Shown here: one piece after another, positions 50,063 to 62,428 of the stretch
How the letters are laid out: each line of letters begins with the position of its first letter
Numbering within the stretch: the first letter of the stretch is position 1
Source of the DNA: Candidatus Eiseniibacteriota bacterium
GTDB lineage: Bacteria > Joyebacterota > Joyebacteria > Joyebacterales > Joyebacteraceae
Reading direction: 5' to 3'
DNA: 64,000 nucleotides
NCBI GenBank assembly: GCA_030622115.1
Contig: JAUXGN010000011.1
Coordinates: 3,232 to 67,231 of the forward strand
Notes under the pieces: model-generated
Told to the model about the DNA's origin: nothing
The model's input: the letters and a program-made list of their open reading frames with translations, nothing else
The model's database searches: none
Made by a program: the position numbers and the translations under genes

Positions 50063-50089
50063 CAAGGCCGACGGCAGGAGAAGCTGCGC

Positions 50090-51388
50090 ATGATGGCAAA
50101 GGCCGAGCTCAAGGCGATCCTTTTGATAGCCGTGGTCTTCCTCGGCTTCTACTTCATTCCGGTCGGCAGTCCGCGCATAGCCGGCGCTGTCACCGAAGCC
50201 CTGCTCTTCGTTCAGGACTACGCGCGCGAGCACGTGCTGTTCGGCCTCCTGCCTGCCTTCTTCATCGCCGGCGCCATATCGGCCTTCGTATCGAAGGCCG
50301 CCGTAATGAAGTACCTCGGAGCGCGCGCAAAGCGAGTTGTGGCATACGCGGTCGCCTCGGTCTCAGGAACGGTGCTGACCATCTGCAGTTGCACCGTCCT
50401 TCCGTTCTTCGCGGGCATCTACTCACGCGGCGCCGGCCTCGGCCCCGCGATCACATTCCTGTATGCAGGACCGGCCATCAACGTGTTGGCCATCTTTCTC
50501 ACGACGAGGGTCCTCGGGGTTCGCCTCGGAGTGGCTCGCGCCGTCGGAGCCATCGGATTCAGCATCCTGATCGGGTTCATCATGCATCTGACATTCCGAC
50601 ACGAGGAGGCCAAGCGCGCCGAGGAGGCAATGGCGCTTCCGGAGCCCGAGGTCGATCGTCCGGTCCTTGAGGTTCTTCTTCTCTTCGCCCTCATGATCGC
50701 GGTGCTTGCATTCGTCAACTGGACCGAGCCCAAGACTTCCGCTGGTGCATTCGCCTTCATCTTCGCACACAAGTGGGTATTCACCGGTATTGCAAGCGTG
50801 CTTCTTGCCGGTCTCCTTGTTGCCCGGTACAGCGTGAGAATATGGGGACCCGTACTCGCTACCGCCGCCGTGCTGGCGGCCGCGATGATCACGGGGGACC
50901 CGCGCCTGGCGTTTCTTGTCGGCATCGGGGGGTTCATCGTTGTCGGCGCCACGGCCTCGCGGGAATCGCGCGAATGGATGGGTAGCTCGTGGGGGCTTGC
51001 GAGGAAGATCCTGCCGCTTCTCTTCATCGGAATCCTGATCGCTGGGGCCATGCTCGGACGTCCGGGCCACGAGGGACTCATTCCTGCGGAGTGGGTGGCC
51101 CGGCTTGTTGGCGGCAATGCTCCCGGCGCAAACGTGGCCGCGTCCCTCGCGGGTGGGCTCATGTACTTCTGCACGATGACAGAGATCCCGATCGTCCAGG
51201 GGCTCTTGGGCGCAGGTATGGGCTCGGGACCGGCACTCGCGTTCCTTCTCGCGGGACCGGCCGTCTCGCTTCCCAACGTGCTTGTCCTGAGGAGCATAAT
51301 CGGGACGAGGAAGGCCTTCACCTATCTCCTGCTCGTGGTCGTCTTCTCCAGCCTGATTGGATTCCTCTACGGGCTAATGACCCGCTAG
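50090..51388 (+). CDS. ArsP/UPF0718-type permease
   Basis: Polytopic membrane protein with TICSCTVLPFFAGI and LYAGPAINV motifs. Lies immediately after arsR. Confidence 0.8.
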   Translation: MMAKAELKAILLIAVVFLGFYFIPVGSPRIAGAVTEALLFVQDYAREHVLFGLLPAFFIAGAISAFVSKAAVMKYLGARAKRVVAYAVASVSGTVLTICSCTVLPFFAGIYSRGAGLGPAITFLYAGPAINVLAIFLTTRVLGVRLGVARAVGAIGFSILIGFIMHLTFRHEEAKRAEEAMALPEPEVDRPVLEVLLLFALMIAVLAFVNWTEPKTSAGAFAFIFAHKWVFTGIASVLLAGLLVARYSVRIWGPVLATAAVLAAAMITGDPRLAFLVGIGGFIVVGATASRESREWMGSSWGLARKILPLLFIGILIAGAMLGRPGHEGLIPAEWVARLVGGNAPGANVAASLAGGLMYFCTMTEIPIVQGLLGAGMGSGPALAFLLAGPAVSLPNVLVLRSIIGTRKAFTYLLLVVVFSSLIGFLYGLMTR

Positions 51389-51421: not shown

Positions 51422-52552
51422 ATGGAAACCAATAGCGACATCAGCTGGTTCTCTCTCGCACGTCAGCCACAGGAGCCGTTCGCCAGGGGCGGAAAGACAC
51501 TGGTGGGCATTGACCTCGACAGGTGGCAGAGACAGTTCCGCCCGTTTCTGAAGCACGTGCGCCGCAGGGAAGTCGTTCTTGTGCTCTCCGGCGGCGGCAT
51601 GAACCTCTCCTGCCACATCGGCGCACTCAAGGTCTTCGAGCTCCTGGAGCTTCCCGTGAGCCACATCTATGGAACGTCGGCGGGCGCAGTTGTCGGCGGA
51701 ATGTATGCGGCGGGAATCTCGACGACAGAGCTTGAGAGGATGATGCTCGACATACAGTCGCCGGATGAACTCTTTGGGTTCGCAGCTCGCCACCCCCGCC
51801 TCAGGCTCGTCACGAACGAACTCCGGAGGAAGCTGCTGCGCATCCCACCGGAGAGATCGGGGATATACAGCCGCACGCAGATCGATCGATACGTGTCCGG
51901 CGTCCTCATGAAACACCTGGGACGGATTCCCACTCTCGGGCAGCTCGAAACAGGCTTCTCCAGCATCACGCTCGATGTCGGAACCGGTGATGAGGATGAC
52001 CGTGTTTCGAAGAGAGTCTTCTCGAGCCACTCCTCTCCCGAGACGAGCCTGAGTGATGCCATTGGAGCGTCAATGGCAATCCCGGGGGTATTCCCTCCGA
52101 AGAGGATAGACGGAAGATACCACCTGGACGGCAGTGTCGTTGAACACCTCGCGATAGGTACTGCCTACGATGACTGGCGGCGGAGACGCGGCCTTTTCCG
52201 CCGAAGGGGGTTGGCCATCATCGCGGTTGACCTGGCCCAACCCGGTCGGGCGCCGTCACGAAGCAAGCTGGCCCAACCGGTCGACCTCGTCCTCTATGCT
52301 CAGACGTTCAGAGGACGTACAATCATGCGCCACAGCCTTTTCCGGTGTCACCGCCCACGCCGGGGCTGTTCGGTCATTCTCGTCAGGCCGAGTGCATTTG
52401 GGATAGACCTGCACGAGATCGAGAAGACACCGAGAGCCATCCTCACGGCGTACGAACGGACGGTCGAACAACTCTCCGGGTCGGGATTCCTTGATGGAAC
52501 TATGGAGGATCTCAAACAGGCCCGGATCGAGCTCGGGATCCGGCGCCCATAG
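51422..52552 (+). CDS. Patatin-like phospholipase
   Basis: LSGGGMN oxyanion motif, GTSAGA (GxSxG), DGS catalytic Asp motif. Confidence 0.85.
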   Translation: METNSDISWFSLARQPQEPFARGGKTLVGIDLDRWQRQFRPFLKHVRRREVVLVLSGGGMNLSCHIGALKVFELLELPVSHIYGTSAGAVVGGMYAAGISTTELERMMLDIQSPDELFGFAARHPRLRLVTNELRRKLLRIPPERSGIYSRTQIDRYVSGVLMKHLGRIPTLGQLETGFSSITLDVGTGDEDDRVSKRVFSSHSSPETSLSDAIGASMAIPGVFPPKRIDGRYHLDGSVVEHLAIGTAYDDWRRRRGLFRRRGLAIIAVDLAQPGRAPSRSKLAQPVDLVLYAQTFRGRTIMRHSLFRCHRPRRGCSVILVRPSAFGIDLHEIEKTPRAILTAYERTVEQLSGSGFLDGTMEDLKQARIELGIRRP

Positions 52553-52575
52553 GATCGAGTTCGCTGTTCCGGACA

Positions 52576-53427
52576 TCAGATCTTCGCGACGACGACCGAT
52601 CCAAGTTCGTACCCGGTCTCTCGAGCGAGTACCTCGCACTTGACTCTGAGAAGGAAGAAGACGGGCCGGGCCGCGCCACTCAGGGTTTCGAAATTCCCCT
52701 GCCCCTTGGCTATGACGAGATCCGCCTTCGCGAACCGCGTTCTCACCGCTTCCGAACAGTCATCGAGAATGGTCCCCGGTGCATCGGAACCGTTGGGCAG
52801 AACGTCAACCATATCCAGAAGCCCGACTGCCCGTGCATCCTCAACAGTCACATCGTTCAGAACCGGACGACCGCGCACCACGAGCGTGATCTTCTCGGGC
52901 GACAGCTCTTCGATCAGAATCCGATCGAAGACTATCTCCCCCGCGTTGTCGGCGATGTAGAGGATGTCGCTTGACTTATCAACTGCAGACCTCAGAAGTT
53001 CGAGCCCGCCTCCGGAGAGCGGTTCCCTCAGCGATTCCTCGATCGACCGCTCCACGTCGGCGGCGTCGGCGCTTCTTCCTCCTCCGAAATCGATGATATT
53101 CCCTGCGATCGCCAACCTGACTGCCACCTCAAACGGATCATCAGCACTCGATACTCTCTCTTTCAGATCCGGGTAGAGCTCGAGAACGAGATCGTTGAAC
53201 TGCCGTTTAACAGCCGCGTACGGATCGTCGATCCCTGTCTCTTCCCTGATGACCCTGTGGATGAGCTGGCCCATCTCCGGTGGGGTCCTCGACATGTCCA
53301 TTGTGGAGACCGCTCTGGCGACCTCCCGCAGAACCCGCTCGTGGACCGATGGATCATCCGAAGCAAAACGTGATGCCTGCAGAGCCTGCCCCAGGAAACA
53401 GGGAATACATTCGGTGTAGGTCTTCAT
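52576..53427 (-). CDS. DUF89 (ARMT1-like damage-control phosphatase) protein
   Basis: MKTYTECIPCFLGQAL N-terminus; IADNAGEIVFD; AKGQGNFETL. Start set to the ATG at 53427 (GGAGG upstream). Confidence 0.8.
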   Translation of the reverse strand: MKTYTECIPCFLGQALQASRFASDDPSVHERVLREVARAVSTMDMSRTPPEMGQLIHRVIREETGIDDPYAAVKRQFNDLVLELYPDLKERVSSADDPFEVAVRLAIAGNIIDFGGGRSADAADVERSIEESLREPLSGGGLELLRSAVDKSSDILYIADNAGEIVFDRILIEELSPEKITLVVRGRPVLNDVTVEDARAVGLLDMVDVLPNGSDAPGTILDDCSEAVRTRFAKADLVIAKGQGNFETLSGAARPVFFLLRVKCEVLARETGYELGSVVVAKI

Positions 53428-53542
53428 GCAACAACCTCCTTGCTTGCCGGAGGTTACCACACACGCACCGCAACGGACAACCCGTGCGCCGGTTCTCAGC
53501 GCCGTTCCCGGCGCTACGCGCCATGCCCGGCGCACCACAGGA

Positions 53543-53572
53543 ACGGCCCGGCCCCTTTCGGGGTCGGGCCGT
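53543..53572 (-). terminator. Strong hairpin downstream of the 105-aa ORF
   Basis: ACGGCCCGGCCCC-TTTC-GGGGTCGGGCCGT. Confidence 0.45.
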
Positions 53573-53681
53573 GTGCGCAGCCTGTGCGCACGGTGCCAGG
53601 TCAAGCCTGACTGCGGGGCGAGACTCGCCGGCCTCCTGCGTTGTCAGCCGCTACATTCCAAAGCCTTCGCACTGTCGATTG

Positions 53682-53999
53682 CTAGACTCCGACTGGCACC
53701 GCTCTCCCCGCATCATCCGTGCCGTAAGCGGAAGAGCGGCGGCCGCGTCCTTCACTACCGCCGCCATACGGGCCCGGAGGAACGGGGGTGCTTCTGTCAA
53801 AGCAGTATGAGCAGTACTCGTAGTCCTCCCAGAACGCCTGATCCAGCTCGTCCGGCTCGAACGCTACGGCGACACCTCGCTCAACGAGCTTTCCCAGAAG
53901 GCAGTTCTCAGATGCCTCGTGCCAAGCGTCATGAACGACCATGAGATCTGAATCGCCTATGAAACGCGCCCTTCCAAGTTCCTTCAATGTGAATGCCAT
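53682..53999 (-). CDS. Hypothetical 105-aa protein with Gly/Arg-rich tail
   Basis: ATG at 53999 (MAFTLKELGRARF...) with GGAGAG upstream. No recognisable family. The C-terminus contains YGGGSEGRGRR. Confidence 0.35.
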   Translation of the reverse strand: MAFTLKELGRARFIGDSDLMVVHDAWHEASENCLLGKLVERGVAVAFEPDELDQAFWEDYEYCSYCFDRSTPVPPGPYGGGSEGRGRRSSAYGTDDAGRAVPVGV

Positions 54000-54144
54000 C
54001 GTGTCCCCACTCTCCAGATCTGATACCGGCCACCGCATCACTCTGTGCTTTCACTCACCCGACATCGCAAGGTGCGTTCCGGAAACACAAGCGCGACACG
54101 ACAATCCGTAACTCCGTCTGGAACACGCAGTTAAGAGAACACGG

Positions 54145-54177
54145 CTCCGCCGGCTGGACACAGTCCCGCCGGCGGAG
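54145..54177 (-). terminator. Hairpin downstream of the Mrp-like gene
   Basis: CTCCGCCGG ... CCGGCGGAG, a 9-bp stem. Confidence 0.4.
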
Positions 54178-54329
54178 AAGACACATTCGTAACCCCTGTA
54201 TTCGCAACCAAGTGTACTACAAGTGTAATCGCTGATGAGACACTATGTTAGGTGTGTACCATCGACGTGACACCTAGAGCTTGAATGTTCCATTCGCAAC
54301 CAGAAACCCAACGCGGGCGCACCGTCACC

Positions 54330-55217
54330 CTATTTCCCTTCGACGGTCGCGACAAGCCTCCCGACGACGTCTGCAAACGCTTGGGCGCCAGCTGAACTGC
54401 CTGAGAGGTAGACTGGAAGCTCTCCCGTATCTCCAGCCGGCACGATTCCCGGATCAATCGGTATCGCCCCGAGGAAAGGCACACCCATGTCGGCGGCCAT
54501 CTCACGCCCTCCCCCGCTCCCGAAGAGATCGGTGCGCGTGCCGCACTCCGGACAGACGAACCCACTCATGTTCTCAATGACACCGAGGATAGGGAGATTC
54601 ACCTGTCTGGCAAAGCTGATTGATTTCCTAACGTCGCTTATGGCCACCGCCTGGGAAGTTGTCACTATCACGGCGCCGTCGGCATCATCTATGAGCTGCG
54701 CGACACTCAGCGGCTCATCTCCGGTACCCGGCGGGGAGTCTATGATAAGATAATCGAGCTCTCCCCATTCAACGTCCTTCAGGAACTGCTTGATGACCCC
54801 GTGCTTGAGAGGTCCGCGCCATATGACGGCGTCATCCTGAGACCTCAACATGAAGCCGACGGACATCACTCTCACACCCTGATCCGTCATGACGGGACGG
54901 ATGCTGTCTCCAACTGCGGTGATGTCTGCCCCCTCCAGTCCGAAAAGACGCGGGATGCTCGGGCCGTGAAGATCGATATCGAGCACTCCGACCTTTTTGC
55001 CGAGCTTGGCAAGTGAGATCGCGAGACTGGCAGCAACCGAACTCTTGCCTACACCGCCCTTACCCGAGATCACAAAAAGCTTGTGCTTGATCCGGCACAT
55101 CCTTCGGGCCAGTTCCTGTCTTTCCTTGAAGTCCTTGTCGGTCTCGCCCTGTGTCTTCGCCTTGGCGGAACAGGTCTCCGTGCTGCACGATTCGCACGAC
55201 AGCTTGTCATCCGACAT
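54330..55217 (-). CDS. Mrp/NBP35-family Fe-S cluster carrier ATPase
   Basis: ISGKGGVGKSSVA deviant Walker A; N-terminal CESCSTETC; DSPPGTGDE; CPECG motif. Start set to the ATG at 55217 (GGAGG upstream). Confidence 0.9.
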   Translation of the reverse strand: MSDDKLSCESCSTETCSAKAKTQGETDKDFKERQELARRMCRIKHKLFVISGKGGVGKSSVAASLAISLAKLGKKVGVLDIDLHGPSIPRLFGLEGADITAVGDSIRPVMTDQGVRVMSVGFMLRSQDDAVIWRGPLKHGVIKQFLKDVEWGELDYLIIDSPPGTGDEPLSVAQLIDDADGAVIVTTSQAVAISDVRKSISFARQVNLPILGVIENMSGFVCPECGTRTDLFGSGGGREMAADMGVPFLGAIPIDPGIVPAGDTGELPVYLSGSSAGAQAFADVVGRLVATVEGK

Positions 55218-55296
55218 CACTACCTCCACTAGGTGATTCTTGAGCCTGCTCTGGCGACTCCGGACCGTCATCACAACAGACGCCGAGACAACGGTT

Positions 55297-56181
55297 TCAA
55301 GCGCCCAGCATTCCTGATACGCGCGTCCATAGATCAATGATGCACGAGGCCGCACTTCCATCCGAATACTCGACGACACTCTGGCCCATGACCTGCGCAG
55401 CGGTTACCGCATCATCATACGGTATCAACCCCACAACGGGAATCCCTTTGCCGTGGCACCATTCCTGGATGCTCTGCGCCGCTTCGAGATTGATATCCCA
55501 CTTGTTGATGCAGACGGCCGTCGGAACCTTGAGCCCGCTTGCTACCTCCGCCACGCGCTTGAGGTCGTGCTGCCCGGACAGCGTCGGTTCCGTAACAACG
55601 AGCGCCAGACTGGCGCCCGTTATCGAAGCGATGACCGGACAACCGATGCCGGGAGACCCATCGACCACGATGAGATCGAATCCCTTCTCTTTCGCCACGC
55701 GACGGGCTTCGGTTCTGACTCGCGTGACCAGTTTCCCGGAGCTCTCTTCGGCAATGCCGAGACGTGCGTGAACGAGCGGACCGTGCTTCGTGTCCGATAC
55801 GAACCACTCTCCGTTCTTAACTTCCTCCATTGCGATGGCGTGACTGGGACAGAAGTGCGCGCAGACGCCGCACCCTTCACATGACAGCGGATCAATGGAG
55901 TAGATCCACTCGCCGTCCACGCGTGTGCGGCTTACGGCTTCGAACCGACAGACCTCCAAGCATTTGCCGACAGCATCACACTTCTTCTGGTCGAGGATAG
56001 CCGTCACCCCACCCGAGAACCCGTGGGTCTCAATCACCGACGGTGAGAGAACAAGATGCAGATCGGCCGCATCCACATCGCAGTCAGCGATAATCGTGTG
56101 TTCGGAGAGCGCGGCGAACGAAGCGACCACACTGGTCTTTCCTGTGCCGCCCTTTCCGCTGATGACAACAAGTTCCTTCAT
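55297..56181 (-). CDS. MinD/ParA-type P-loop ATPase with inserted 2x[4Fe-4S] ferredoxin domain
   Basis: ISGKGGTGKTS; CDVDAADL; CEVCRFEAV and CEGCGVCAHFCP cysteine motifs. ATGA overlap with the upstream paralog. Confidence 0.85.
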   Translation of the reverse strand: MKELVVISGKGGTGKTSVVASFAALSEHTIIADCDVDAADLHLVLSPSVIETHGFSGGVTAILDQKKCDAVGKCLEVCRFEAVSRTRVDGEWIYSIDPLSCEGCGVCAHFCPSHAIAMEEVKNGEWFVSDTKHGPLVHARLGIAEESSGKLVTRVRTEARRVAKEKGFDLIVVDGSPGIGCPVIASITGASLALVVTEPTLSGQHDLKRVAEVASGLKVPTAVCINKWDINLEAAQSIQEWCHGKGIPVVGLIPYDDAVTAAQVMGQSVVEYSDGSAASCIIDLWTRVSGMLGA

Positions 56182-57038
56182 CTCTTCTCAGCCCCCCTCA
56201 TACGGGTGAGGACAGCGTCCACCAGCTTCTCCAGCATGTCGGCATATCCAGGGACCGCAAGGACCGGCATCTCACCCCGCGCGTACGCTTCTGCAACCGT
56301 GCGACTGTGAGGAATCTTCAGAATCACCTCGAGGCCTTCCTTCTCACAGTAATCCTCAACACCTGAGTCGCCCACATCACTTCTGTTGATGACGATGCTT
56401 GTCGTCAAACCCAGTTTTCTCACGGCGCCGACTGCGAGCTTGAGATCGTTGAGACCGAAGGGGGTAGGTTCCGTCACCATCACTACCCAGTCCACACCGC
56501 GTATCGTCTCCACTACGGGACACGACGTGCCGGGTGGGGCATCGAGTATGACTATCCCTTCCTCCGGAACTGCTCTCCTCACGGCACGTATTATGGGCGT
56601 CCCCATTGCCTCTCCGACTGCGAGCCTCCCCTGCACGAAACCCAGATCTCCGGCGCTTCCTCGCTCAACAACACCGATGGGCCGTGGCACCTCCGTGATG
56701 GCGCCTTCGGGACACACCAGCGCGCATCCCCCGCATCCGTGGCAGAGGGAGGGAAACACCATCACCTTCTTCGGCAAACAGGCCAGCGCGTTGAACCGAC
56801 AGATCTCACAGCATTGGCCGCAATTCGTGCATAGCTCATGGTCTATCACCGGGACCGGGATCGACACGTCCTCTGAACGCTCGATCCCGGGTCCCAGGAA
56901 GATGTGTCCGTTCGGCTCCTCGACGTCGCAGTCAGCATATGTGGTCGGCTGGCCGCGCGCGGAGAGCAAGTGTGCGAGACAGGTGGCCAGCGTCGTCTTG
57001 CCCGTACCACCTTTGCCGCTCGCAATGGCTATCTTCAT
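56178..57038 (-). CDS. MinD/ParA-type P-loop ATPase with inserted 2x[4Fe-4S] ferredoxin domain (paralog)
   Basis: ASGKGGTGKTT; CDVEEPN; CTNCGQCCEICRF and CHGCGGCALVCP motifs. Confidence 0.85.
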   Translation of the reverse strand: MKIAIASGKGGTGKTTLATCLAHLLSARGQPTTYADCDVEEPNGHIFLGPGIERSEDVSIPVPVIDHELCTNCGQCCEICRFNALACLPKKVMVFPSLCHGCGGCALVCPEGAITEVPRPIGVVERGSAGDLGFVQGRLAVGEAMGTPIIRAVRRAVPEEGIVILDAPPGTSCPVVETIRGVDWVVMVTEPTPFGLNDLKLAVGAVRKLGLTTSIVINRSDVGDSGVEDYCEKEGLEVILKIPHSRTVAEAYARGEMPVLAVPGYADMLEKLVDAVLTRMRGAEKR

Positions 57039-57047
57039 CGAGGCTCC

Positions 57048-57464
57048 CTATTCGCCGGACCCGGCTTCGAGTTCCGACAGCCGCTTCTGCACATCCTCGA
57101 GCACGCCAGCCAGGTATTCAGCCTGCGCCTTGAGAGCGGTGGCCTCATCGGGCACCGCAACGTCCGGTGGGATGGCAGGACCGGCCGCCCCGTAGTTCCA
57201 CGGCGCCGTTCCCCCTACGCGCATCCAGCCCGGCATTCCTGTCGCGTAGTACATGTTCCGCCTGCCGTAGCCGCCGCCACGGCCACCAAAGCCGCCGCCA
57301 CGCCCGAAGCCGCCACCGCGGCCGCGTCCAAGTCCTGCTCCGACCCGGAATCCCGCGCCTCCAGTGCTCACATAGCCCGGCACATCATTGCCCGCGCAAT
57401 AGCCGGCTCTCCTACCCGTCATCGGTCCGAGTCCCTCCGGTCCCGTTCTGTCTCCTCTAGGCAT
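57048..57464 (-). CDS. DUF5320-family protein with RGG-rich core and C-terminal coiled-coil
   Basis: MPRGDRTGPEGLGPMTGRRAGYCAG N-terminus typical of DUF5320; GRGRGGGFGRGGGFGGRGGGYGRR. Start set to the ATG at 57464 (GGAGG upstream). Confidence 0.8.
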   Translation of the reverse strand: MPRGDRTGPEGLGPMTGRRAGYCAGNDVPGYVSTGGAGFRVGAGLGRGRGGGFGRGGGFGGRGGGYGRRNMYYATGMPGWMRVGGTAPWNYGAAGPAIPPDVAVPDEATALKAQAEYLAGVLEDVQKRLSELEAGSGE

Positions 57465-57485
57465 TGTGGTCACCTCCTCTTGTTC

Positions 57486-57848
57486 TCAAGTCCAATGTCC
57501 ATTCACATCGGCTGCATCAGTGGACGACAACTCTCCGCGCTTGAACTTAGCGACGGCATCCTCCACTGTTCCCTCAACCGAAGTGATGACCTCTACTCCA
57601 GCGCCGGCCAGCGTTCTGAATGCATTCGGCCCGCAGTGACCAGTCAGCAGATACTTGACGCCCAATCCGGCCACGCGCGCTGCCGCCTGCACACCGGCGC
57701 CAGATCCCGCTTCGACACCGCTCTGGTTGTCTATCGTTTCTGATGCACCCGTCTCCGTATCGATGATCACGAAATACCTCGCCCGACCGAATCTCGGATC
57801 CACATCACTCGTCATCTCCGGTCCCCGAGCCGTAACAGCTATCTTCAT
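57486..57848 (-). CDS. NifX/NafY-fold (dinitrogenase FeMo-cofactor-binding domain) protein, ORP-like, 120 aa
   Basis: MKIAVTARGPEMTSDVDPRFGRARYFVIID...YLLTGHCGPNAF. ORF 57486..58178 trimmed to the ATG at 57848 (GGAGG upstream). The upstream part of the listed ORF is an out-of-frame reading of the GR repeat. Confidence 0.8.
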   Translation of the reverse strand: MKIAVTARGPEMTSDVDPRFGRARYFVIIDTETGASETIDNQSGVEAGSGAGVQAAARVAGLGVKYLLTGHCGPNAFRTLAGAGVEVITSVEGTVEDAVAKFKRGELSSTDAADVNGHWT

Positions 57849-57852
57849 TCCT

Positions 57853-58413
57853 CTATCCTCCTTCACGCCTTCTGTCTCCCTGACCATCTCGACCTGCGCC
57901 ACGTCCACCGCCGCCACGTCCACCGCCGCCACCTCGACCTGCGCCACGTCCACCACCGCCACCTTGACCTGCGCCACGCCCACCGCCGCCACCTTGACCG
58001 GCGCCACGTCCACCGCCACCACCTCGACCGGCGCCACGTCCACCACCGCCACCTCTGCCTGCGCCACCACCTCCGGCGCCGCCGCATCCAGGCATTGCGA
58101 ACCTTCGCCCGGACAACTTGCCTTCCGCGAACGCACTAAGAACATCCTCGACCTCCCCCGACACCCACGGCATGACACTCACACCTGTCCACGCGAGAAG
58201 TCCCGCCAGTCGGCCGGAGAGCGCCCCGCAGATCAGAACGTCGAGGCCAAGATCGCCGATCAGACGCGCCCGGCGCATCATCCCCCAGCCACCAAGCCCA
58301 ACTGTTTCGACATCCGACCACGCCGTCCCGGTGAACTCGACTACCAGAAGCTCCTCAGAAGCATCCAGTACCGGCGAGACCTTCGTACCCCATATGGCTA
58401 TTCCCACACGCAT
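57853..58413 (-). CDS. NifX/NafY-fold protein with ~65-aa Gly/Arg repeat tail
   Basis: MRVGIAIWGTKVSPVLDASEELLVVEF...VLICGALSG...FAMPGCGG, followed by (GGGGGRGAGR/Q)n. Start set to the ATG at 58413 (GAGGAG upstream). Confidence 0.7.
   Translation of the reverse strand: MRVGIAIWGTKVSPVLDASEELLVVEFTGTAWSDVETVGLGGWGMMRRARLIGDLGLDVLICGALSGRLAGLLAWTGVSVMPWVSGEVEDVLSAFAEGKLSGRRFAMPGCGGAGGGGAGRGGGGGRGAGRGGGGGRGAGQGGGGGRGAGQGGGGGRGAGRGGGGGRGGGGRGAGRDGQGDRRREGG
57886..58080 (-). repeat. About 6.5 tandem copies of a 30-nt coding repeat
   Basis: Units such as ACCTCGACCTGCGCCACGTCCACCACCGCC (57931-57960), ACCTTGACCTGCGCCACGCCCACCGCCGCC and ACCTTGACCGGCGCCACGTCCACCGCCACC. Each encodes a GGGGGRGAGR decapeptide on the minus strand. 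Confidence 0.85.
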
Positions 58414-58485
58414 TCTCATCTCCTCAAGAGTCCCCGCTCTCACACACCCGTCGCTCATCGGAGGGACTCTGCAAGCAGGTACAAA

Positions 58486-58500
58486 GCAGTTTGTGTGCCC
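58486..58500 (-). promoter_or_regulatory. Sigma54 -24/-12 promoter for the ORP-like operon
   Basis: Minus strand GGGCAC-ACAAA-CTGC, against the consensus TGGCAC-N5-TTGC with correct GG/GC spacing. It lies ~75 nt upstream of the 58413 start. Confidence 0.55.
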
Positions 58501-58598
58501 AAACGGCGCGACCAACCGCCGAACCCTGTAACGGCTTATATATGGCTATGTTAGCGTGATACTGGTGAGTGCGCGAGAACGAATGCTACTGTGTGGAC

Positions 58599-58646
58599 GT
58601 TGCGGCCACGCAACTCCATATTCAGATTATGTTGCAGTACCGCAAC
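58599..58646. promoter_or_regulatory. Two GTTGC-N6-GCAAC palindromes, candidate enhancer (UAS) sites for the adjacent sigma54 activator
   Basis: GTTGCGGCCACGCAAC (58599-58614) and GTTGCAGTACCGCAAC (58631-58646). Centres are 32 bp apart and 100-150 bp upstream of the -24/-12 element. Confidence 0.45.
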
Positions 58647-58649
58647 CCC

Positions 58650-59999
58650 CTAGAGCAACCCAAGACGTTTCATCCGGCGCCAGAGCGTGGTCTTGTGAAT
58701 GCCAAGCTCCGAAGCTGTAGCGAGGCGATTCCCGCTGTTTCTCTCAAGAGCCGAAACGAGGAACTGCCGCTCCAGGGCTTCCATGGAGCGTGGGCGGCCT
58801 GTCTCCGCAGATACCGCTCCTGACTTCAGATAGGCAGGCAGATGTCGTGTTCCTATCTGTCCGGACCTGCACGTGACGAACCCGTGCTCGATGATGTTCT
58901 GTAGTTCGCGGATGTTGCCGGGGAAGTCGTGATTCATGAGTATGGACATCACTGCGTTCGAAACACCCAGAACATCGCGGTTCCGCAGGCTATTGAACTT
59001 CGCGACGAAGTGATCGACGAGGAGCGGGATGTCATCCTTGCGCTCGCGCAGAGGCGGGAGCTCGACGGTCACGACATTGATGCGATAGAAAAGATCCCGC
59101 CGGAACTCCCCCCGCTCCACAAGCTCGGGCAGGTTTCTGTTCGATGCAGAGACAATGCGGACATCGGCGATGAGTGTCTCAGTCCCCCCGAGTGGTTCGT
59201 ATGACCCATCTTCCAGCACTCTGAGAAGCTTGCTCTGCAGGGCCGGTGAGATGTCACCGATCTCATCGAGGAAGATGGTCCCGCCATTGGCGAGGGAGAA
59301 GCGCCCTGGCTTGTCACGTTTGGCGTCAGTAAAGGCTCCAGCCTTGTGACCGAAGAGCTCCGATTCAAGAAGCGTATCCGGCAGCGCTCCGCAGTTGACA
59401 ACAACCATGGGGCCGTCTGCTCGAGAACTCAGGCCGTGAATCGCCAGAGCGAGGAGTTCCTTGCCCGTGCCACTCTCACCCTGAATGAGAACGGTACTCC
59501 CGCTCTCCGCGATATCCGGGAGCATTGCGAACAGCTCCTGGATGCGGTCCTCCCTACCAATCATATCGGCGAACGTGTAGCGCCCCTCAAGCTCTCTTCT
59601 GAGATCCTGCTCAACGCTGAGATCTCTGAAGGTCTCCACGCCTCCGACTATCTCGCCCGCATCGTCCCTGAGGAGCGCCGTTGACACACTGATCGGCACA
59701 CGGCTCCCCGCTGAGTTGATGATATACACCTGTCGGCCAACGATGTGTTCCCCCGTCTCCATCGTCTCCCTCAGAGCGCAGGCAGATTCGCATATGCTCG
59801 CTCGAAACACGTCCCAGCACTGACGTCCGATCGCGTCGCTGCGGCTGGTTCCCGTGATCTCCTCGGCAGCACGATTGAAGGACGTGATCCGCCAGTCTGT
59901 ATCAATGGTGAAGACCCCTTCGGCGATGCTGTCGAGGATCACATCCTCGCAGCCTGCATCGCGGCCTTCTCCTGCCGGCTTCTCTCGCTTGCCTGTCAT
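58650..59999 (-). CDS. Sigma54-dependent transcriptional activator (PAS sensor, AAA+, Fis-type HTH)
   Basis: PAS segment ILDSIAEGVFTIDTDWRITSFNRAAEEITG; GESGTGKELLA Walker A; GAFTDA (GAFTGA variant); ELGIHKTTLWRRMKRLGL. The listed start at 60038 is TTG, so I set the start to the ATG at 59999 (AAGGAG upstream). Confidence 0.9.
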   Translation of the reverse strand: MTGKREKPAGEGRDAGCEDVILDSIAEGVFTIDTDWRITSFNRAAEEITGTSRSDAIGRQCWDVFRASICESACALRETMETGEHIVGRQVYIINSAGSRVPISVSTALLRDDAGEIVGGVETFRDLSVEQDLRRELEGRYTFADMIGREDRIQELFAMLPDIAESGSTVLIQGESGTGKELLALAIHGLSSRADGPMVVVNCGALPDTLLESELFGHKAGAFTDAKRDKPGRFSLANGGTIFLDEIGDISPALQSKLLRVLEDGSYEPLGGTETLIADVRIVSASNRNLPELVERGEFRRDLFYRINVVTVELPPLRERKDDIPLLVDHFVAKFNSLRNRDVLGVSNAVMSILMNHDFPGNIRELQNIIEHGFVTCRSGQIGTRHLPAYLKSGAVSAETGRPRSMEALERQFLVSALERNSGNRLATASELGIHKTTLWRRMKRLGLL

Positions 60000-60217
60000 C
60001 GTCGCAGACTCCTTGCCTTTGCAGTTGCGTTCCTGCAACCCCTACCACAATAGCCCTCTGCACTAGCGCGGTCAAGTCTGCGGTGAGACTGGTCTCAGAG
60101 CAGGCCGGAATATTGCTCAACAACCCATGGGTATTGGGACCGAGGCAAGTCGGTTTCGTCACCCTGTTGAGCGGATGCCAATGCATCGACGTGTGTTTTG
60201 CATCTCTCATTTCCTTA

Positions 60218-60246
60218 TTGACTTGCTATCAGGATTGTGGTATATT
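60218..60246 (+). promoter_or_regulatory. Sigma70-type promoter TTGACT-N17-TATATT with TG extension
   Basis: TTGACT 60218-60223, 17-nt spacer ending ..TGG, TATATT 60241-60246. The ~95-nt leader contains the hairpin CGAACGCC-9 nt loop-GGCGTTCG (60272-60296). Confidence 0.5.
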
Positions 60247-60347
60247 CAGGCGTCATTGTCGTCCCCGGCTTCGAACGCCTGCTCGAGAGGCGTTCGCTGG
60301 GCGACCGGCACAAAGCTGGCGTCCAGAGTTACGAAAGGTAGGGCATC

Positions 60348-60905
60348 ATGCGAATTTGTGCGGTCATAGCAGTTATCGCACTGCTCGTCGTGCCCGTCGC
60401 TGCGCAGCGGCATGTGGAGTACTTGGGCGACCCTGTTCGTGATCCGATCCCGCCCAACGGCTCCCAGTGGCATGAGCTTCACCCGAACTTCTGCCTCGTC
60501 GAGAACCAGGACGGCTACGAGGACAATGGTGACAATATCGTGAGCGTATGCGATGTCATCATCCTCGCCGGCGTCCGCTACCACATCGACTGGGCTGGAC
60601 CGACGTACTGGCTGGTCCCCACGGTAGCAGGCGATGAGCATTGGGTAGAGCCGATCGACCCCTCGGGCGGCGACCCGACGGGCGAGATCTGGCACGAGGT
60701 GTACCCGGTCTTCTGTATGGAGTGGGAAGTCATCGACTGGGAAGACAACGGCGATGAGATCCTGAGCGCGTGCGACCTGGTTACCTTGAGCGATGGCATC
60801 ACGTACCACGTTGAGGAGATCGGTCTCAACATAGAGATCACCGAGGAGCCAAGTCCCACAGAGCAGAGCACGTGGGGCAAGATCAAGAGTCTGTTCGGCA
60901 TCTAG
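60348..60905 (+). CDS. Small secreted protein with an internal two-fold Cys-containing repeat and TWGxIKxxF tail
   Basis: Signal peptide MRICAVIAVIALLVVPVAAQ. Repeats are WHELHPNFC...YEDNGDNIVSVCDVIILAGVRYHI and WHEVYPVFC...WEDNGDEILSACDLVTLSDGITYHV. Tail PSPTEQSTWGKIKSLFGI. Confidence 0.7.
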   Translation: MRICAVIAVIALLVVPVAAQRHVEYLGDPVRDPIPPNGSQWHELHPNFCLVENQDGYEDNGDNIVSVCDVIILAGVRYHIDWAGPTYWLVPTVAGDEHWVEPIDPSGGDPTGEIWHEVYPVFCMEWEVIDWEDNGDEILSACDLVTLSDGITYHVEEIGLNIEITEEPSPTEQSTWGKIKSLFGI

Positions 60906-60952
60906 AGAAGACACACTGCTGATTCTCGAGAATCAGGGGCACGACAAGACAC

Positions 60953-60990
60953 GGAACCCCGCCCGGCGAGCATGCACCGGGCGGGGTTCC
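60953..60990 (+). terminator. Strong hairpin downstream of the 60348 gene
   Basis: GGAACCCCGCCCGG-10 nt loop-CCGGGCGGGGTTCC. It is preceded by the 18-bp perfect palindrome CTGATTCTCGAGAATCAG (60919-60936). Confidence 0.55.
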
Positions 60991-60997
60991 TACGTCC

Positions 60998-61086
60998 GTC
61001 GGCGCCATCCCGCAGCGCGCCGATACGTCGGCGCCATCCCGCAGCGCGCCGATACGTCGGCGCTACTTCGCGATGCGGCCCGATAC
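60998..61086. repeat. 29-nt tandem repeat: two perfect copies plus one degenerate copy overlapping the rhodanese gene 3' end
   Basis: GTCGGCGCCATCCCGCAGCGCGCCGATAC at 60998-61026 and 61027-61055, with a degenerate third copy to ~61086. Each unit holds an internal CGGCGC/GCGCCG inverted repeat. Confidence 0.8.
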
Positions 61087-62382
61087 CTGGCGCCACTCGA
61101 GCATACCGCCATAGAAACGCTGGACATCGAGGAAGCCGGCCCGCGCCGCATCCGTCGACGTGTACCTGCTCCGGATGCATGTCGGACCGTAGCAGTAGGA
61201 TACGAACGGCATCGTCGTCCGGTCAGCTCCCGGCCAGTAGCGGCCCATATACACATCGAGCGAGTCGGCGATAAGTCTCGATGAGAGAACTACGGACCCG
61301 GGGATGTGTCCCTTCGAATGATCCCCTGGATGGCGCACATCGAGAAAAACAAATGCTTCCATCGGAGAGTCGGACCACGGCCAGCCCTGTTCCTGTTCAA
61401 CGAGGATCTTGAGTTCATCTCCGCCGATGAACCGCACGACGGGATGGCTCTCGTCCGAGACCCATCCGGTCCAGCCGGCCGGGAAGTACTTCACACGAGC
61501 TATGCCTGCTCGTCTGAGAAAGCAGTAGCCGGCAGCGCCGTTGTCTGGACTACCGTCTCCGTGAACAACAAACTCATCTTGTAGATTGACGCGACTCGAT
61601 TGGCGAGGACCTAGGAATGAGAATACCTCTCGGCACTCCTCAGGCGGAAACAGGAGGCCGTCATTCCCCACGAACTCACCAAAGTCGAACTGAAGGCTGT
61701 GCGGAATATGTCCCACTCTGTCATCGGGACCGCTCCGGGGGTCGTCCACGGGCCCTTCCCAACTACTCTTGCTCCGCGCGTCAACGATCTCGACACCCGT
61801 CACACCGTAGACGCTCTCTACGTATTCGGATGACCCAAGAAATCCAGCCGCCTCGACGGCCGCCCAGGGGGTGGATGGCAGCGCTCGCGCGGTAGTCTCA
61901 ACACTTCCACCGGTCGAAACCCAGTGCTCGTATCCTCCGTCCAGAAGCATGACCTTCCCGGCTCCAGAGACCTCAAGGGCCCAGAACACAAGTCCGGCAA
62001 CGTCAGAGTACGTCTCGTCTCCATAGCAGACAATCGTCCCGCGACCGCCGACGCCTGCTTCGCCGAACGCGTCCGACAAGCCGGCGATATCACCCTCGCG
62101 TTCCACAATGGGAAGACCGTCAGCGGGAACTGAGATGGCTCCCGGGATGTGTCCTTCCGCGTAGCTTCGGACAACGCGCGCGTCCACGATGACGACGTTC
62201 CGCGATGTGAGATTGCTCCTGAGCCAATCCACCGAGCACGCAACATCCGGATAGACCGTGTCGGGCACGCCCTCATCCTTCGCCCAGGGCGGCCAGGCCG
62301 CACCTGCATCCTGAGAAGGCCCGAACACGACCACGGCAGCGAGAAACGCCGCGGCAAACACGACCTGCCGATGACTGCGCAT
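61063..62382 (-). CDS. Exported multi-rhodanese-domain sulfurtransferase-like protein
   Basis: Signal-like MRSHRQVVFAAAFLAAVVVFGPSQDAGA. Rhodanese motifs VVIVDARVVRSYAEGHIPGAI and VFLDVRHPGDHSKGHIPGSV; Cys loops VCYGD and YCYGPTCIRS. Start set to the ATG at 62382. Confidence 0.75.
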   Translation of the reverse strand: MRSHRQVVFAAAFLAAVVVFGPSQDAGAAWPPWAKDEGVPDTVYPDVACSVDWLRSNLTSRNVVIVDARVVRSYAEGHIPGAISVPADGLPIVEREGDIAGLSDAFGEAGVGGRGTIVCYGDETYSDVAGLVFWALEVSGAGKVMLLDGGYEHWVSTGGSVETTARALPSTPWAAVEAAGFLGSSEYVESVYGVTGVEIVDARSKSSWEGPVDDPRSGPDDRVGHIPHSLQFDFGEFVGNDGLLFPPEECREVFSFLGPRQSSRVNLQDEFVVHGDGSPDNGAAGYCFLRRAGIARVKYFPAGWTGWVSDESHPVVRFIGGDELKILVEQEQGWPWSDSPMEAFVFLDVRHPGDHSKGHIPGSVVLSSRLIADSLDVYMGRYWPGADRTTMPFVSYCYGPTCIRSRYTSTDAARAGFLDVQRFYGGMLEWRQVSGRIAK

Positions 62383-62428
62383 CGCCGGCTTCCCCGCCTC
62401 GGATTTGTCTTCGCGCTCTCGACTCAAG

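Follow-up and report, generated by a model that had tools for sequence, protein, structure and literature searches.

The 64-kb stretch of DNA analysed here (the window) contains a complete copy of the Desulfovibrio 'orange protein' (ORP) gene cluster, carried by an uncultured Candidatus Eisenbacteria-like bacterium. The cluster belongs to a kind already described in sulfate-reducing Desulfovibrio and is no new type of system. A first-pass annotation had proposed a sigma54/OrpR-type ORP cluster equivalent to DVU2103-DVU2109, a claim upheld for each gene open to testing: all nine of its open reading frames were found at the coordinates it gave, on the minus strand and with the domains it named (ORF check, Pfam, NCBIfam). 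We think it rather probable that this orp-locus orthologue is a redox-gated, anaerobe-specific module that handles metal-sulfide clusters. The features discussed below are as follows, in the direction of the genes.

60047..60075, minus strand: predicted sigma70-like promoter of orpR, TTGACC-17-TATTGT (consensus scan, 9/12 matches)
60024..60039, unstranded: putative OrpR box 3, GTTGCGTTCCTGCAAC (exact palindrome)
58650..59999, minus strand: orpR, PAS / AAA+ sigma54 activator / Fis-type HTH (Pfam, NCBIfam)
58599..58646, unstranded: putative OrpR boxes 1 and 2, GTTGCGGCCACGCAAC at 58599-58614 and GTTGCAGTACCGCAAC at 58631-58646 (palindromes, predicted upstream activating sequences)
58485..58500, minus strand: predicted sigma54-type -24/-12 promoter P1, GGGCAC-acaaa-CTGCT, GGGCACacaaaCTGCT (consensus scan)
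57853..58413, minus strand: orp7-type protein with NifX/NafY-fold domain (1-105), MPGC (107-110) and an 80-aa Gly/Arg tail (Pfam, AF2, Foldseek)
57884..58080, unstranded: 15/30-nt tandem repeat encoding the enlarged GRG tail (TRF: period 30, 5.7 copies, 87% matches)
57486..57848, minus strand: orp8, orange protein (ORP) orthologue (Pfam, PDB sequence match)
57048..57464, minus strand: orp5-type DUF5320 protein (Pfam, 74 bits)
56178..57038, minus strand: ATPase A, MinD-type (Orp4-like), with complete 2x[4Fe-4S] ferredoxin insert (CbiA/MinD P-loop, Pfam/NCBIfam)
55297..56181, minus strand: ATPase B, MinD-type (Orp3-like), with ferredoxin insert (CbiA/MinD P-loop, Pfam/NCBIfam)
54330..55217, minus strand: putative Mrp/NBP35-type Fe-S carrier with N-terminal CxxCxxxxC and a CPxC motif (Pfam, NCBIfam)
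54145..54177, minus strand: strong hairpin, then a partly U-rich tract (folding energy -28.5 kcal/mol, z = -3.95)
54066..54081, minus strand: second candidate sigma54-type element, CGGAAC-gcacc-TTGCG, upstream of orf105
53682..53999, minus strand: orf105, lineage-specific small protein of 105 aa (relatives only)
52576..53427, minus strand: homologue of DUF89 / ARMT1-like metal-dependent phosphatases (Pfam, 229.7 bits)

Gene order and conservation

The layout is best read as orpR, then orp7-orp8-orp5-orp4-orp3-mrp, then the hairpin, then orf105-DUF89. Gaps among the six core genes range from -4 to 79 bp, and these genes probably form one operon. The gene set is co-conserved in dozens of genomes, across 80 + 36 loci from many phyla, so that the first-pass reading withstands this test of its own, and gene order is nearly identical in loci of PVC, Planctomycetota, Zixibacteria, NC10, Acidobacteriota, Nitrospirota and Desulfobacterota.

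The first-pass annotation had implied that the one-way layout and the presence of DUF5320 depart from Desulfovibrio. The Oleidesulfovibrio locus (the genus of D. alaskensis) already runs in one direction, with orpR, orp7, orp8, orp5, orp4, orp3 and mrp in the same seven-gene order as here. At the Nitratidesulfovibrio locus, which contains the published OrpR site, orp5-orp4-orp3 matches the order DUF5320, MinD-Fd A, MinD-Fd B of the window, and the gene at the Orp5 position belongs to DUF5320 (28.4 bits, Pfam); the Oleidesulfovibrio protein at that position had no Pfam match. Neither trait, therefore, departs from Desulfovibrionaceae. The orp7 position in Oleidesulfovibrio likewise encodes an MPGC motif and a basic tail, as in the orp7-type protein of the window.

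The description of the genome as 'FCB-like' could not be confirmed, because the closest loci are labelled Candidatus Eisenbacteria, a phylum that NCBI places under 'Bacteria candidate phyla'. Three related loci (L001-L003) were used to assess conservation among the closest relatives. Particular to this lineage or to the window are an Mrp without a NifX-like domain, an ATPase with seven of eight ferredoxin cysteines, a repeat-expanded Arg/Gly tail and the 105-aa gene.

NifX-fold and DUF5320 proteins

Profile and fold searches place both small proteins in the NifX fold, as had been proposed. The orp7-type protein narrowly passes the Nitro_FeMo-Co cutoff (27.3 versus 26.3 bits, Pfam), and its AlphaFold2 model, with a pLDDT of ~90 over residues 1-105, has as best Foldseek matches PH0822, TM1816, MJ0327, NafY, NifX and ORP (TM-score ≤0.83); profile and model agree, and the predicted structure confirms a NifX/NafY fold. 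From about residue 111 the model is disordered. The annotation's low-complexity RG tail stands in part: the segment from MPGC to the C terminus is 29 aa in L001-L003 versus 80 aa in the window, where the repeat has enlarged it, but MPGC followed by a cationic tail is not merely local, being a feature of the orp7-type family in all sampled phyla (alignment of 48 sequences).

The second protein, NifX2 (57486-57848), scores 82.9 bits against Nitro_FeMo-Co and, among solved structures, best matches D. gigas ORP over its full length (2wfb, E 1.9e-22); judged by sequence, it is an orange-protein orthologue. ORP holds an anionic Mo-Cu-S cluster, S2MoS2CuS2MoS2 as isolated, without covalent bonds (PMC6345978). 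The physiological ligand of ORP is a matter of dispute, which we counted against the metal-sulfide mechanism considered below.

The DUF5320 assignment also proved correct. The protein combines a conserved N-terminal motif, MPRGDRTGP..GPMTGR.AGYC, with a region of Gly, Arg and aromatic residues and with a helix at the C terminus (107-136), the only part that AlphaFold2 models with confidence. Its C23 is invariant in 68 sequences, and Orp5 homologues bind [2Fe-2S] (PMC6345978). A possible parallel is IssA, which joins a NifX-fold domain to a thioferrate-binding tail that is cationic and Gly-rich (PMC5524996); the IssA tail has aromatic residues, whereas the Orp7 tail of the window has none. No fusion of DUF5320 to a NifX domain was found among the best 120 DUF5320 homologues.

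ATPases and Fe-S carrier

Both ATPases are, by profile search, MinD-type proteins with a ferredoxin insert, as first described, and their genes overlap by ATGA, also as described. The claim of two 2x[4Fe-4S] inserts holds for ATPase A, in which all eight ferredoxin cysteines and switch-II Cys173 are each 99-100% conserved (115 homologues), but needs correcting for ATPase B. There, Val71 replaces the second cysteine of the first CxxCxxCxxxC, a position at which 96% of homologues have cysteine, leaving seven rather than eight; its switch-II Cys181 is invariant. These switch-II cysteines may be analogous to that of NifH. In both locus L133 and locus L316, ATPase A aligns with the earlier of the ATPase genes that follow Orp5. 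Both proteins carry the deviant Walker A GKGGTGKT, and against NCBIfam MinD models they score 32-63 bits, with cutoffs above 200.

The Mrp/NBP35 assignment agrees with a ParA/NUBPL score of 327 bits (Pfam). The best NCBIfam model is MrpORP at 378.5 bits, which is under the 450 cutoff and covers model positions 2-251 of 365. Like 14 of the 34 Mrp proteins of related loci, this one lacks the C-terminal NifX-like (Di-Nase) domain. Its ribosome-binding site and ATG can be read in the sequence.

Predicted regulation

The annotated sigma54 activator is borne out by its domains, PAS, Sigma54_activat (219 bits) and HTH_8 (Pfam/NCBIfam), by a GAFTDA loop and by a cysteine triad, CWDVFRASICESAC, of the pattern C-x-D-x6-C-x3-C. 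The triad corresponds to C52/D-E54/C61/C65 of published OrpR (PMC8359166) and recurs in 44 of the 45 EBPs that adjoin orp7/orp8 in related loci.

P1 scores 9/11, a level that nine sites in the window attain; at the same offset (-87/-88), L001-L003 have a TGGCAC-N5-xTGCT element. Of 37 related loci, 24 have an element scoring at least 9/11 ahead of their first NifX-like gene; among random controls the figure is 24 of 400 (6%). Given the position of P1, a transcript start near 58470-58475 is plausible, and we infer that orp transcription depends on sigma54. Neither an rpoN gene nor an IHF consensus site was found in the 64-kb window, which, like the number of sites that reach the score of P1, counts against this reading.

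Exact GTTGC-N6-GCAAC occurs only three times in the 64 kb, at boxes 1, 2 and 3, which flank orpR; with up to one mismatch, there are seven sites versus 1.42 expected. Boxes 1 and 2, ~100-150 bp upstream of the -24 element, are conserved in L001-L003, as is the position of box 3 (~-39 from the ATG) with a variable spacer, and other phyla have similar palindromes, GT[TCA]GC-N6-GC[AGT]AC. We infer that these palindromes are OrpR binding sites; DvH OrpR binds on either side of its own gene (PMC8359166). Box 3 has the sigma70-like -10 element on one side and the orpR ribosome-binding site on the other, an arrangement that suggests autoregulation. From the sequence and published DvH work, we propose that the sigma70-like promoter, overlapped by one OrpR box, drives orpR; that OrpR would occupy the two boxes immediately 3' of its gene; and that, at low redox potential, with its PAS-domain [4Fe-4S] cluster intact, it would activate P1.

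The reported hairpin after mrp is real, has compensatory changes in its stem in L001-L003 (alignment A1) and probably terminates or attenuates the orp transcript. The element at 54066..54081 is a tentative candidate for a second sigma54-type promoter: the four Eisenbacteria-type sequences have its GGAAC and ACCTTGC cores unchanged, with one or two substitutions in the block between, and it scores just 8/11, as do 43 sites in the window.

Possible functions

DvH MrpORP passes Fe-S to Orp3, Orp4 and Orp8 (PMC6345978). By analogy, the Mrp of the window would carry [4Fe-4S] clusters and load both MinD-type ATPases, a step demonstrated in vitro for Orp3/Orp4 in DvH. ATPases A and B may pair as a heterodimer that is switched by ATP and binds the orange protein, by analogy with the complex demonstrated in DvH. 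Such a pair could use the binding or hydrolysis of ATP to drive electron transfer, or else the assembly or release of anionic metal-sulfide species. The NifX-fold proteins would hold such species without covalent bonds, and the Orp7-type protein and DUF5320 would stabilize them electrostatically through their cationic Gly/Arg tails, a role modelled on the IssA tail, itself proposed to hold thioferrate.

The DvH literature ties the orp locus to cell morphology and division and not to a defined metal pathway (PMC8359166), which raises the question of whether the cluster is instead a redox-controlled positioning or cell-division system, its MinD-type ATPases being membrane- or pole-bound spatial regulators while the Fe-S and NifX-fold parts merely sense redox. 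Inactivation of DvH OrpR causes morphological defects, from which its authors hypothesized a role in division (PMC8359166); MrpORP is found at one pole, Orp3/Orp4 reportedly have a MinD-like C-terminal amphipathic helix (PMC6345978), and the deviant Walker A would fit. We nevertheless consider this unlikely, as minC, minE, ftsZ and partition genes are absent in and beside the cluster in the window and related loci, the MinD scores fall far below cutoff, the ferredoxin-insert and switch-II cysteines are invariant, and all other conserved partners are metal-cluster proteins or carriers.

Buffering or detoxification of Mo/W thiometallates in sulfidic habitats, with the orange protein and cationic tails sequestering thiomolybdate-type anions, has in its favour the noncovalent S2MoS2CuS2MoS2 of isolated ORP (PMC6345978), a close homologue of NifX2, and tails suited to polyanions. 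It is quite improbable, given that the cluster and its immediate neighbours lack mod, tup and moa genes, that the activities demonstrated in DvH concern Fe-S clusters (PMC6345978) and that the conserved cysteines of the Orp7-type and DUF5320 proteins fit Fe-S ligation. We give very little credence to a role in nucleic-acid metabolism through Arg/Gly-rich proteins that bind RNA or DNA or that assemble into condensates: the Orp7 tail and the Gly/Arg region of DUF5320 are RGG-type in composition and predicted disordered, but conserved cysteines directly adjoin the tails, the cluster has no nucleic-acid enzyme, and in all sampled phyla the genes are strictly linked to those for Fe-S ATPases, for an Fe-S carrier and for NifX-fold proteins. 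Finally, that the genes adjoin by chance and form no functional unit is scarcely credible, for although a 330-bp gap with the hairpin and a 255-bp gap before DUF89 mean that a single transcript need not span them all, synteny contradicts it: dozens of loci from many phyla keep this gene set in an almost unchanged order, and the six core genes are spaced by -4 to 79 bp.

Genes downstream of the hairpin

The 105-aa orphan noted after the hairpin indeed has no family in Pfam or NCBIfam. Among 5.8 billion sequences, its relatives form four clusters only, the window's own included, at 70-76% identity, and it sits at the same place in L001-L003.

The DUF89 assignment is sound at the family level, and the protein falls under both NCBIfam equivalog cutoffs. 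We found no description in the literature of a link between DUF89 and the orp cluster. Of 80 related loci, 25, from several phyla, have a DUF89 gene on the same strand within 8 kb, either inside the cluster or next to it; it often separates orp8 from orp5 or one ATPase gene from the other. DUF89 is probably a frequent accessory enzyme of the cluster.

Gene content and relation to known orp loci

The minus-strand cluster at 52576-59999 is very probably an orp locus of the kind known from Desulfovibrio vulgaris Hildenborough (DvH; DVU2103-DVU2109). The first-pass annotation had proposed this likeness, and it is now supported by gene content, by the cysteine triad of the regulator OrpR, by orthology of the orange protein (ORP) and by gene order. 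All of the genes it named are found on the minus strand, and profile searches bear out its assignments of a sigma54 activator with PAS and AAA+ domains, two small NifX-fold proteins, a DUF5320 protein and an Mrp/NBP35 ATPase. The hairpin, 105-aa orphan and DUF89 gene that it placed after mrp are likewise present.

Genes of the cluster
58650-59999, minus: OrpR; PAS, sigma54-interaction AAA+ (219 bits) and Fis-type HTH domains
57853-58413, minus: Orp7-type protein; Nitro_FeMo-Co (27.3 bits, cutoff 26.3), then a Gly/Arg tail
57486-57848, minus: NifX2/ORP, the second NifX-fold protein (orp8); Nitro_FeMo-Co (82.9 bits, Pfam)
57048-57464, minus: DUF5320 protein (74 bits)
56178-57038, minus: ATPase A; CbiA/MinD P-loop protein with inserted 4Fe-4S dicluster motif
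55297-56181, minus: ATPase B; CbiA/MinD P-loop protein with inserted 4Fe-4S dicluster motif
54330-55217, minus: Mrp; Mrp/NUBPL (327 bits)
53682-53999, minus: orf105; no family in profile searches
52576-53427, minus: DUF89/ARMT1-like protein (Pfam, 229.7 bits over the full length)

The core genes are tightly packed, with gaps of -4 to 79 bp; the ATGA overlap noted earlier between the two ATPase genes is present, and a GGAGG ribosome-binding site precedes mrp. Long plus-strand ORFs of 268, 279 and 299 aa (56389-58554) were rejected as genes, being mirror frames of Gly/Arg-rich coding repeats, as was an extension (230 aa, minus strand) of the NifX2 ORF, a mirror or read-through frame of G+C-rich Gly/Arg repeats. 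GC skew falls to -0.34 across 56389-58554.

The gene content corresponds one-to-one to the DvH locus (orp3-5, orpR and orp7-9). Shared with the Desulfovibrionaceae are an OrpR bearing the Cys triad, an Orp7-type protein whose NifX-fold domain is followed by MPGC and a basic tail, an orange protein, a small Arg/Gly protein of Orp5 type (DUF5320), two paralogous ferredoxin-insert MinD-type ATPases and an Mrp carrier; as in DvH, there is a -24/-12 element of sigma54 type, and palindromes lie to either side of orpR. Two further Desulfovibrionaceae loci sharpen the match. One, from Oleidesulfovibrio (D. alaskensis lineage; L316), has seven genes on one strand, in the gene order of the window: orpR, a NifX-like gene at the Orp7 position, the orange-protein gene, one for a small Arg/Gly/Cys protein, those for ATPases A and B, and one for a two-domain Mrp. 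The other, from Nitratidesulfovibrio (L133), was located through the published OrpR site and comprises a divergent orpR, the site, a 126-aa gene and genes of ATPase A and ATPase B type. As the 126-aa product encoded at the Orp5 position scores above the cutoff for DUF5320 (28.4 bits against 27), the DUF5320, A and B genes of the window correspond to orp5-orp4-orp3; the Oleidesulfovibrio Orp5 counterpart is Arg/Gly-rich and has no Pfam match. The one-way arrangement and the link to DUF5320, first taken as departures from Desulfovibrio, are therefore already found in the reference lineage, the former in L316 and the latter in L133.

Real differences exist. Unlike DvH, the window has no divergent second operon, its activator box is GTTGC-N6-GCAAC rather than GGGCGYRTTTTGCGCCC, and its Mrp lacks the C-terminal Di-Nase domain that defines the MrpORP of DvH. 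Set against both DvH and Oleidesulfovibrio, ATPase B has one Cys fewer, the Orp7 tail is 80 aa long, orf105 and DUF89 are appended and the host is of Candidatus Eisenbacteria type. Work on the ORP system goes back to about 2000 for the orange protein and to 2011 for the orp operons. The initial observation is confirmed and its interpretation supported: the cluster is a new example of a known system, in a phylum new to it, and it varies no more than is ordinary between lineages.

Scanning genome contigs for the DvH OrpR site GGGCGYRTTTTGCGCCC gave 120 matches, mostly due to chance, among which L133 alone was useful; another, L111, has a paralogue context devoid of orp genes. A peptide-pattern search from a fragment of the L133 OrpR matched generic sigma54 activators and no Desulfovibrio orp locus.

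OrpR and its predicted targets

In DvH, C52, C61 and C65 in the PAS domain of OrpR, with an acidic residue at 54, form the arrangement C-x-[D/E]-x6-C-x3-C, on which redox sensing through a [4Fe-4S] cluster depends (PMC8359166). The window's OrpR carries CWDVFRASICESAC, that is, C-x-D-x6-C-x3-C, and the triad motif is kept in 44 of the 45 enhancer-binding proteins (EBPs) that adjoin orp7/orp8 in related loci. Its sigma54-contact loop (residues 221-226; 59322-59339, minus) reads GAFTDA and not the canonical GAFTGA, as also does that of the Oleidesulfovibrio OrpR.

In the 236 bp that separate orpR from the first structural gene lies the -24/-12-type element GGGCAC-acaaa-CTGCT (P1, 58485-58500). 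On a simple 11-position score P1 reaches 9, which is not compelling by itself because nine sites do as well over both strands of the window (128 kb). P1 is the predicted sigma54 promoter of the orp structural genes, and related loci have comparable elements. TGGCAC-N5-xTGCT stands at the same offset in the three closest related loci (L001-L003). Of 37 loci drawn from many phyla, 24 have an element scoring at least 9/11 in the 250 bp that precede their first NifX-like gene; for random segments taken from those loci the figure is 24 of 400 (6%).

Predicted OrpR boxes (exact GTTGC-N6-GCAAC)
58599-58614: upstream of P1
58631-58646: upstream of P1
60024-60039: after a sigma70-like TTGACC-17-TATTGT promoter and before the orpR ribosome-binding site

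The 64 kb contain no other exact occurrence of the palindrome. Its arms are kept in L001-L003, with different spacers, and in other phyla comparable positions carry GTCGC-N6-GCGAC, GTAGC-N6-GCTAC or ATTGC-N5/6-GCAAT. In DvH, too, OrpR has binding sites to either side of its gene, of a different sequence, GGGCGYRTTTTGCGCCC (PMC8359166). We infer that the palindromes on both sides of orpR are OrpR sites. No match to the IHF consensus WATCAANNNNTTR with at most one mismatch was found in 58500-58600, between P1 and the activator boxes, although this consensus was derived from E. coli and might not apply here. In the window, we found no rpoN gene and detected no EBP other than OrpR. The best sigma54-type element of the window lies elsewhere, at 9754-9769 (plus; TGGCACCGTGTTTGCA, 11/11), near the start of a long ORF (9611-11032), and an element scoring 10/11 at 49540-49555 (minus) overlaps the start of an arsR gene on the opposite strand.

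NifX-fold and DUF5320 proteins

Because its Pfam score is weak, the Orp7-type protein was checked by structure. Its AlphaFold2 model is confident over residues 1-105 (pLDDT about 90) and drops below 50 from about residue 111. The solved structures closest to it by Foldseek are those of PH0822, TM1816, MJ0327, NafY, NifX bound to NifEN, MTH1175 and orange protein, with target TM-scores up to 0.83, which backs the NifX-fold assignment. A word-based homologue search gave only 16 matches, so the family was drawn from tblastn on the fetched loci. The resulting 48 aligned sequences have in common W8, SPVxD (13-17), LxCG (60-63), G86 and MPGC (107-110), followed by a tail that carries 4-17 Arg/Lys, is poor in acidic residues and often has additional Cys. 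The gene at the Orp7 position in Oleidesulfovibrio has LxCG, MPGC (at an HLMPGC end) and a basic tail, as in the window. The window's own tail, encoded by a 15/30-nt tandem repeat (57884-58080), is 80 aa long and predicted to be disordered, with 51 Gly, 13 Arg/Lys, 3 Asp/Glu and no aromatic residue; in L001-L003 the stretch that runs from MPGC to the C terminus measures 29 aa. Some distant Orp7-type relatives (P0012-P0016) have, after the Arg/Gly region, an additional zinc-ribbon-like C-terminal module, CxCPxCG...CPKCG.

For NifX2, the best match among all PDB sequences is D. gigas ORP (2wfb; E 1.9e-22, a full-length alignment covering residues 2-108), and by this sequence match it is an orange-protein orthologue with a single Di-Nase/NifX-fold domain. 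Two Kiritimatiellia MAGs have a single ORF that joins the Orp7-type gene to the orange-protein gene (L011:1299-2108, 270 aa; L022:7221-7979, 253 aa). Such fusions support a direct functional or physical interaction of the two proteins.

The DUF5320 family shares MP.GD.TGP.G.GP.TGR..G.C, which includes an invariant Cys and is followed by a Gly/Arg/aromatic stretch; the window's member has one confident C-terminal helix (107-136) and is otherwise predicted to be disordered.

These features recall IssA of Pyrococcus furiosus, a NifX-fold protein with a cationic Gly-rich tail, which stores Fe and S as anionic thioferrate; an uncharacterised ‘IssX’ clade is there given the same high pI and Gly-rich tail (PMC5524996). 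The Orp7-type protein resembles IssA and IssX in joining an IPR003731/NifX-fold domain (about 105-109 aa) to a disordered, Gly-rich, cationic tail with Cys, and DUF5320 resembles the Gly/Arg/aromatic chemistry of the IssA tail; in contrast, the window's Orp7 tail has no aromatic residue, compared with 14 of 70 in IssA, and no Pro-rich linker (PMC5524996). In the IssA literature consulted, we found no description of co-encoded MinD-type ATPases or sigma54 control. A direct domain link between DUF5320 and IssA is not shown, because no NifX-DUF5320 fusion occurs among the best 120 DUF5320 homologues.

The ATPases and Mrp

Both ATPases keep the deviant Walker A motif and are 40-44% identical to the L133 pair. 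The first-pass annotation had given each a 2x[4Fe-4S] insert. This holds in full for ATPase A (Orp4-like), which has all eight ferredoxin Cys, and in part for ATPase B (Orp3-like), which has seven, Val71 replacing the second Cys of its first CxxCxxCxxxC motif. Alignment of 115 homologues of A and 105 of B shows the ferredoxin Cys to be conserved in both families; position 71 is Cys in 96% of the B sequences and Val in about 4%, the change to Val being confined to those of Eisenbacteria type. One cluster of ATPase B therefore probably has three Cys ligands, possibly as a [3Fe-4S] cluster.

Across the same 115 and 105 homologues, a further Cys is invariant seven residues after the switch-II Asp (C173 of A, in DAPPGTSC; C181 of B, in DGSPGIGC). 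We take this to be the spacing between Asp125 and Cys132 of NifH and, by analogy, the switch-II Cys of both ATPases may serve as an interface metal ligand. A comparable pairing is known from nitrogenase, hydrogenase and CODH maturation, with its NifX/NafY cofactor carriers and SIMIBI-class metallocluster ATPases (NifH, and also CooC, HypB and UreG): proteins of NifX fold carry anionic metal-sulfide clusters, and their partners are dimeric Fe-S ATPases with a deviant Walker A motif. The window ATPases differ in having an inserted 2x[4Fe-4S] ferredoxin domain where NifH-type proteins have the Cys97 ligand. No nif, hyp or coo genes lie near the cluster, which is not within a nif cluster (nifEN, nifB, nifDK), and the likeness to NifX/NafY is one of fold only. 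We found no report in the ORP literature consulted of ATPase or reductase activity for these ferredoxin-insert ATPases.

Mrp shares its P-loop domain and CPxC with Mrp/NBP35/ApbC carriers and has its own N-terminal CxxCxxxxC segment. It consists of the P-loop domain only, the ORF ending without a tail or C-terminal Di-Nase domain, as in 14 of 34 related loci. It falls below the equivalog cutoffs of both MrpORP (NCBIfam, 378.5 bits against 450, model positions 2-251 of 365) and ApbC (214 against 348).

Distribution across phyla

A search of 185,579 species genomes gave as nearest loci three MAGs (L001-L003) whose seven core proteins, from OrpR through Mrp, share 72-92% identity with those of the window. 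Two are labelled Candidatus Eisenbacteria; the first-pass description of the genome as FCB-like is unconfirmed, because NCBI taxonomy places Candidatus Eisenbacteria under candidate phyla without a superphylum. The gene set co-occurs in loci of many phyla, as a survey of 80 loci retrieved with ATPase A makes clear. Many of the contigs are short, so the frequencies are lower bounds.

Families in the 80 loci retrieved with ATPase A
ATPase B: 75/80
ORP-type: 65/80
Orp7-type: 45/80
DUF5320: 44/80
OrpR: 41/80
Mrp: 39/80
DUF89: 25/80

The commonest order among them is orpR, orp7, orp8, (DUF89), DUF5320, A, B, mrp. Phyla with the cluster include Kiritimatiellia, Verrucomicrobiota, Lentisphaerae, Planctomycetota, Zixibacteria, NC10, Acidobacteriota, Gemmatimonadota, Nitrospirota, Chloroflexota, Bacillota and Desulfobacterota. 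Because the seven-gene set, the OrpR Cys triad, the predicted sigma54 promoter and a palindrome with variable arms are conserved well beyond Desulfobacterota, the ORP system is a general anaerobe trait and not a peculiarity of sulfate reducers.

DUF89 and the downstream region

The strong hairpin after mrp (54145-54177; -28.5 kcal/mol, z = -3.95) lies in a 330-bp gap before orf105 that is 80% identical among four Eisenbacteria-type sequences. This gap also holds four GGTTRCGRAT-like repeats (54110-54300) and a conserved CGGAAC-gcacc-TTGCG (54066-54081, minus). This element might drive orf105 and DUF89 as a second sigma54 promoter, although its score is just 8/11. Within 52000-61000, the gap included, scanning with Rfam gave nothing credible. 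With close relatives only, orf105 belongs to no family and is restricted to this lineage.

By its profile match, the DUF89 product is a family member with an ARMT1-like domain; its NCBIfam equivalog scores (174 and 171 bits) are below the cutoffs (440 and 500). Where present in the 80 loci, DUF89 is always on the strand of the cluster, in many phyla, often lying after orp8 and before DUF5320, or separating the two ATPase genes. It is absent from a second set of 36 loci, mostly of Desulfobacterota, retrieved with the D. gigas orange protein. No literature was found that links DUF89 or DUF5320 to the ORP system.

A proposed mechanism and its alternatives

Work in DvH provides a framework. There, orp expression depends on OrpR, which a rising redox potential switches off (PMC8359166); MrpORP hands Fe-S clusters to an Orp3-Orp4-Orp8 complex, and an Orp5 homologue binds [2Fe-2S] (PMC6345978). 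The orange protein carries an anionic Mo-Cu-S cluster without covalent ligands, and a physical complex of Orp3, Orp4, Orp5, Orp8 and Orp9 is counted among the features of the known system. In the window, OrpR would activate P1 at low potential and Mrp would mature the two ATPases. These would act as an A/B heterodimer in which ATP drives electron transfer to, or assembly or release of, anionic metal-sulfide species on the NifX-fold proteins, which the basic tails of Orp7 and DUF5320 would stabilise. Our confidence in this scheme as a whole is evenly balanced.

A redox-controlled role in cell division or positioning seems rather unlikely. It draws on the DvH morphology described in later papers and on the polar localisation of MrpORP, whereas the partner set consists entirely of metalloproteins and no min partners (minC/minE) are encoded nearby; the two ATPases score 32 and 54 bits with minD_bact, against an equivalog cutoff of 212.9. 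Buffering of thiometallates appears less probable still, and nucleic-acid binding by the RGG-like regions hardly credible.

The metal-sulfide scheme could be extended by analogy with IssA and the nitrogenase Fe protein. Across anaerobic phyla, the ORP cluster might be an ATP-driven, redox-gated store and dispenser for metal sulfides that are polymeric and anionic, of the thioferrate or thiometallate kind. The NifX folds would nucleate these, the Orp7 and DUF5320 tails, being cationic, would wrap them as proposed for IssA, and the MinD-type heterodimer would reduce and release clusters like the nitrogenase Fe protein, with the switch-II Cys at the dimer interface; DUF89 would be an unrecognised accessory enzyme, and the repeat-expanded Gly/Arg tail would tune capacity. 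We regard this extension as speculative and, taken whole, unlikely, but were the IssA-like reading true it would explain Fe-S storage and mobilisation in many anaerobes under sulfidic, low-potential conditions. The window leaves the biochemical question of the ORP system standing, but the comparison sharpens it. We found no mention in the ORP literature consulted of the Orp7 signature of MPGC and basic tail, the invariant switch-II Cys of both ATPases or the recurrent in-cluster DUF89; these three features, along with the general form of the OrpR box, provide directly testable handles.

Flanking genes

The cluster is flanked by genes for a rhodanese protein, an SNF transporter, a patatin-like protein and ArsP/ArsR. 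The upstream rhodanese-domain gene (61063-62442, minus) was rejected as a member of the system, its synteny being limited to Eisenbacteria-type loci; its product has three rhodanese domains and a signal-like N terminus. Synteny with the cluster is similarly confined to Eisenbacteria-type loci for a 185-aa secreted-looking protein of no family (60348-60905, plus) and a patatin-like lipase (51422-52552, plus). Downstream of the cluster, on the other strand, are an ArsR-type regulator and an ArsP-type permease (49544-51388, plus).
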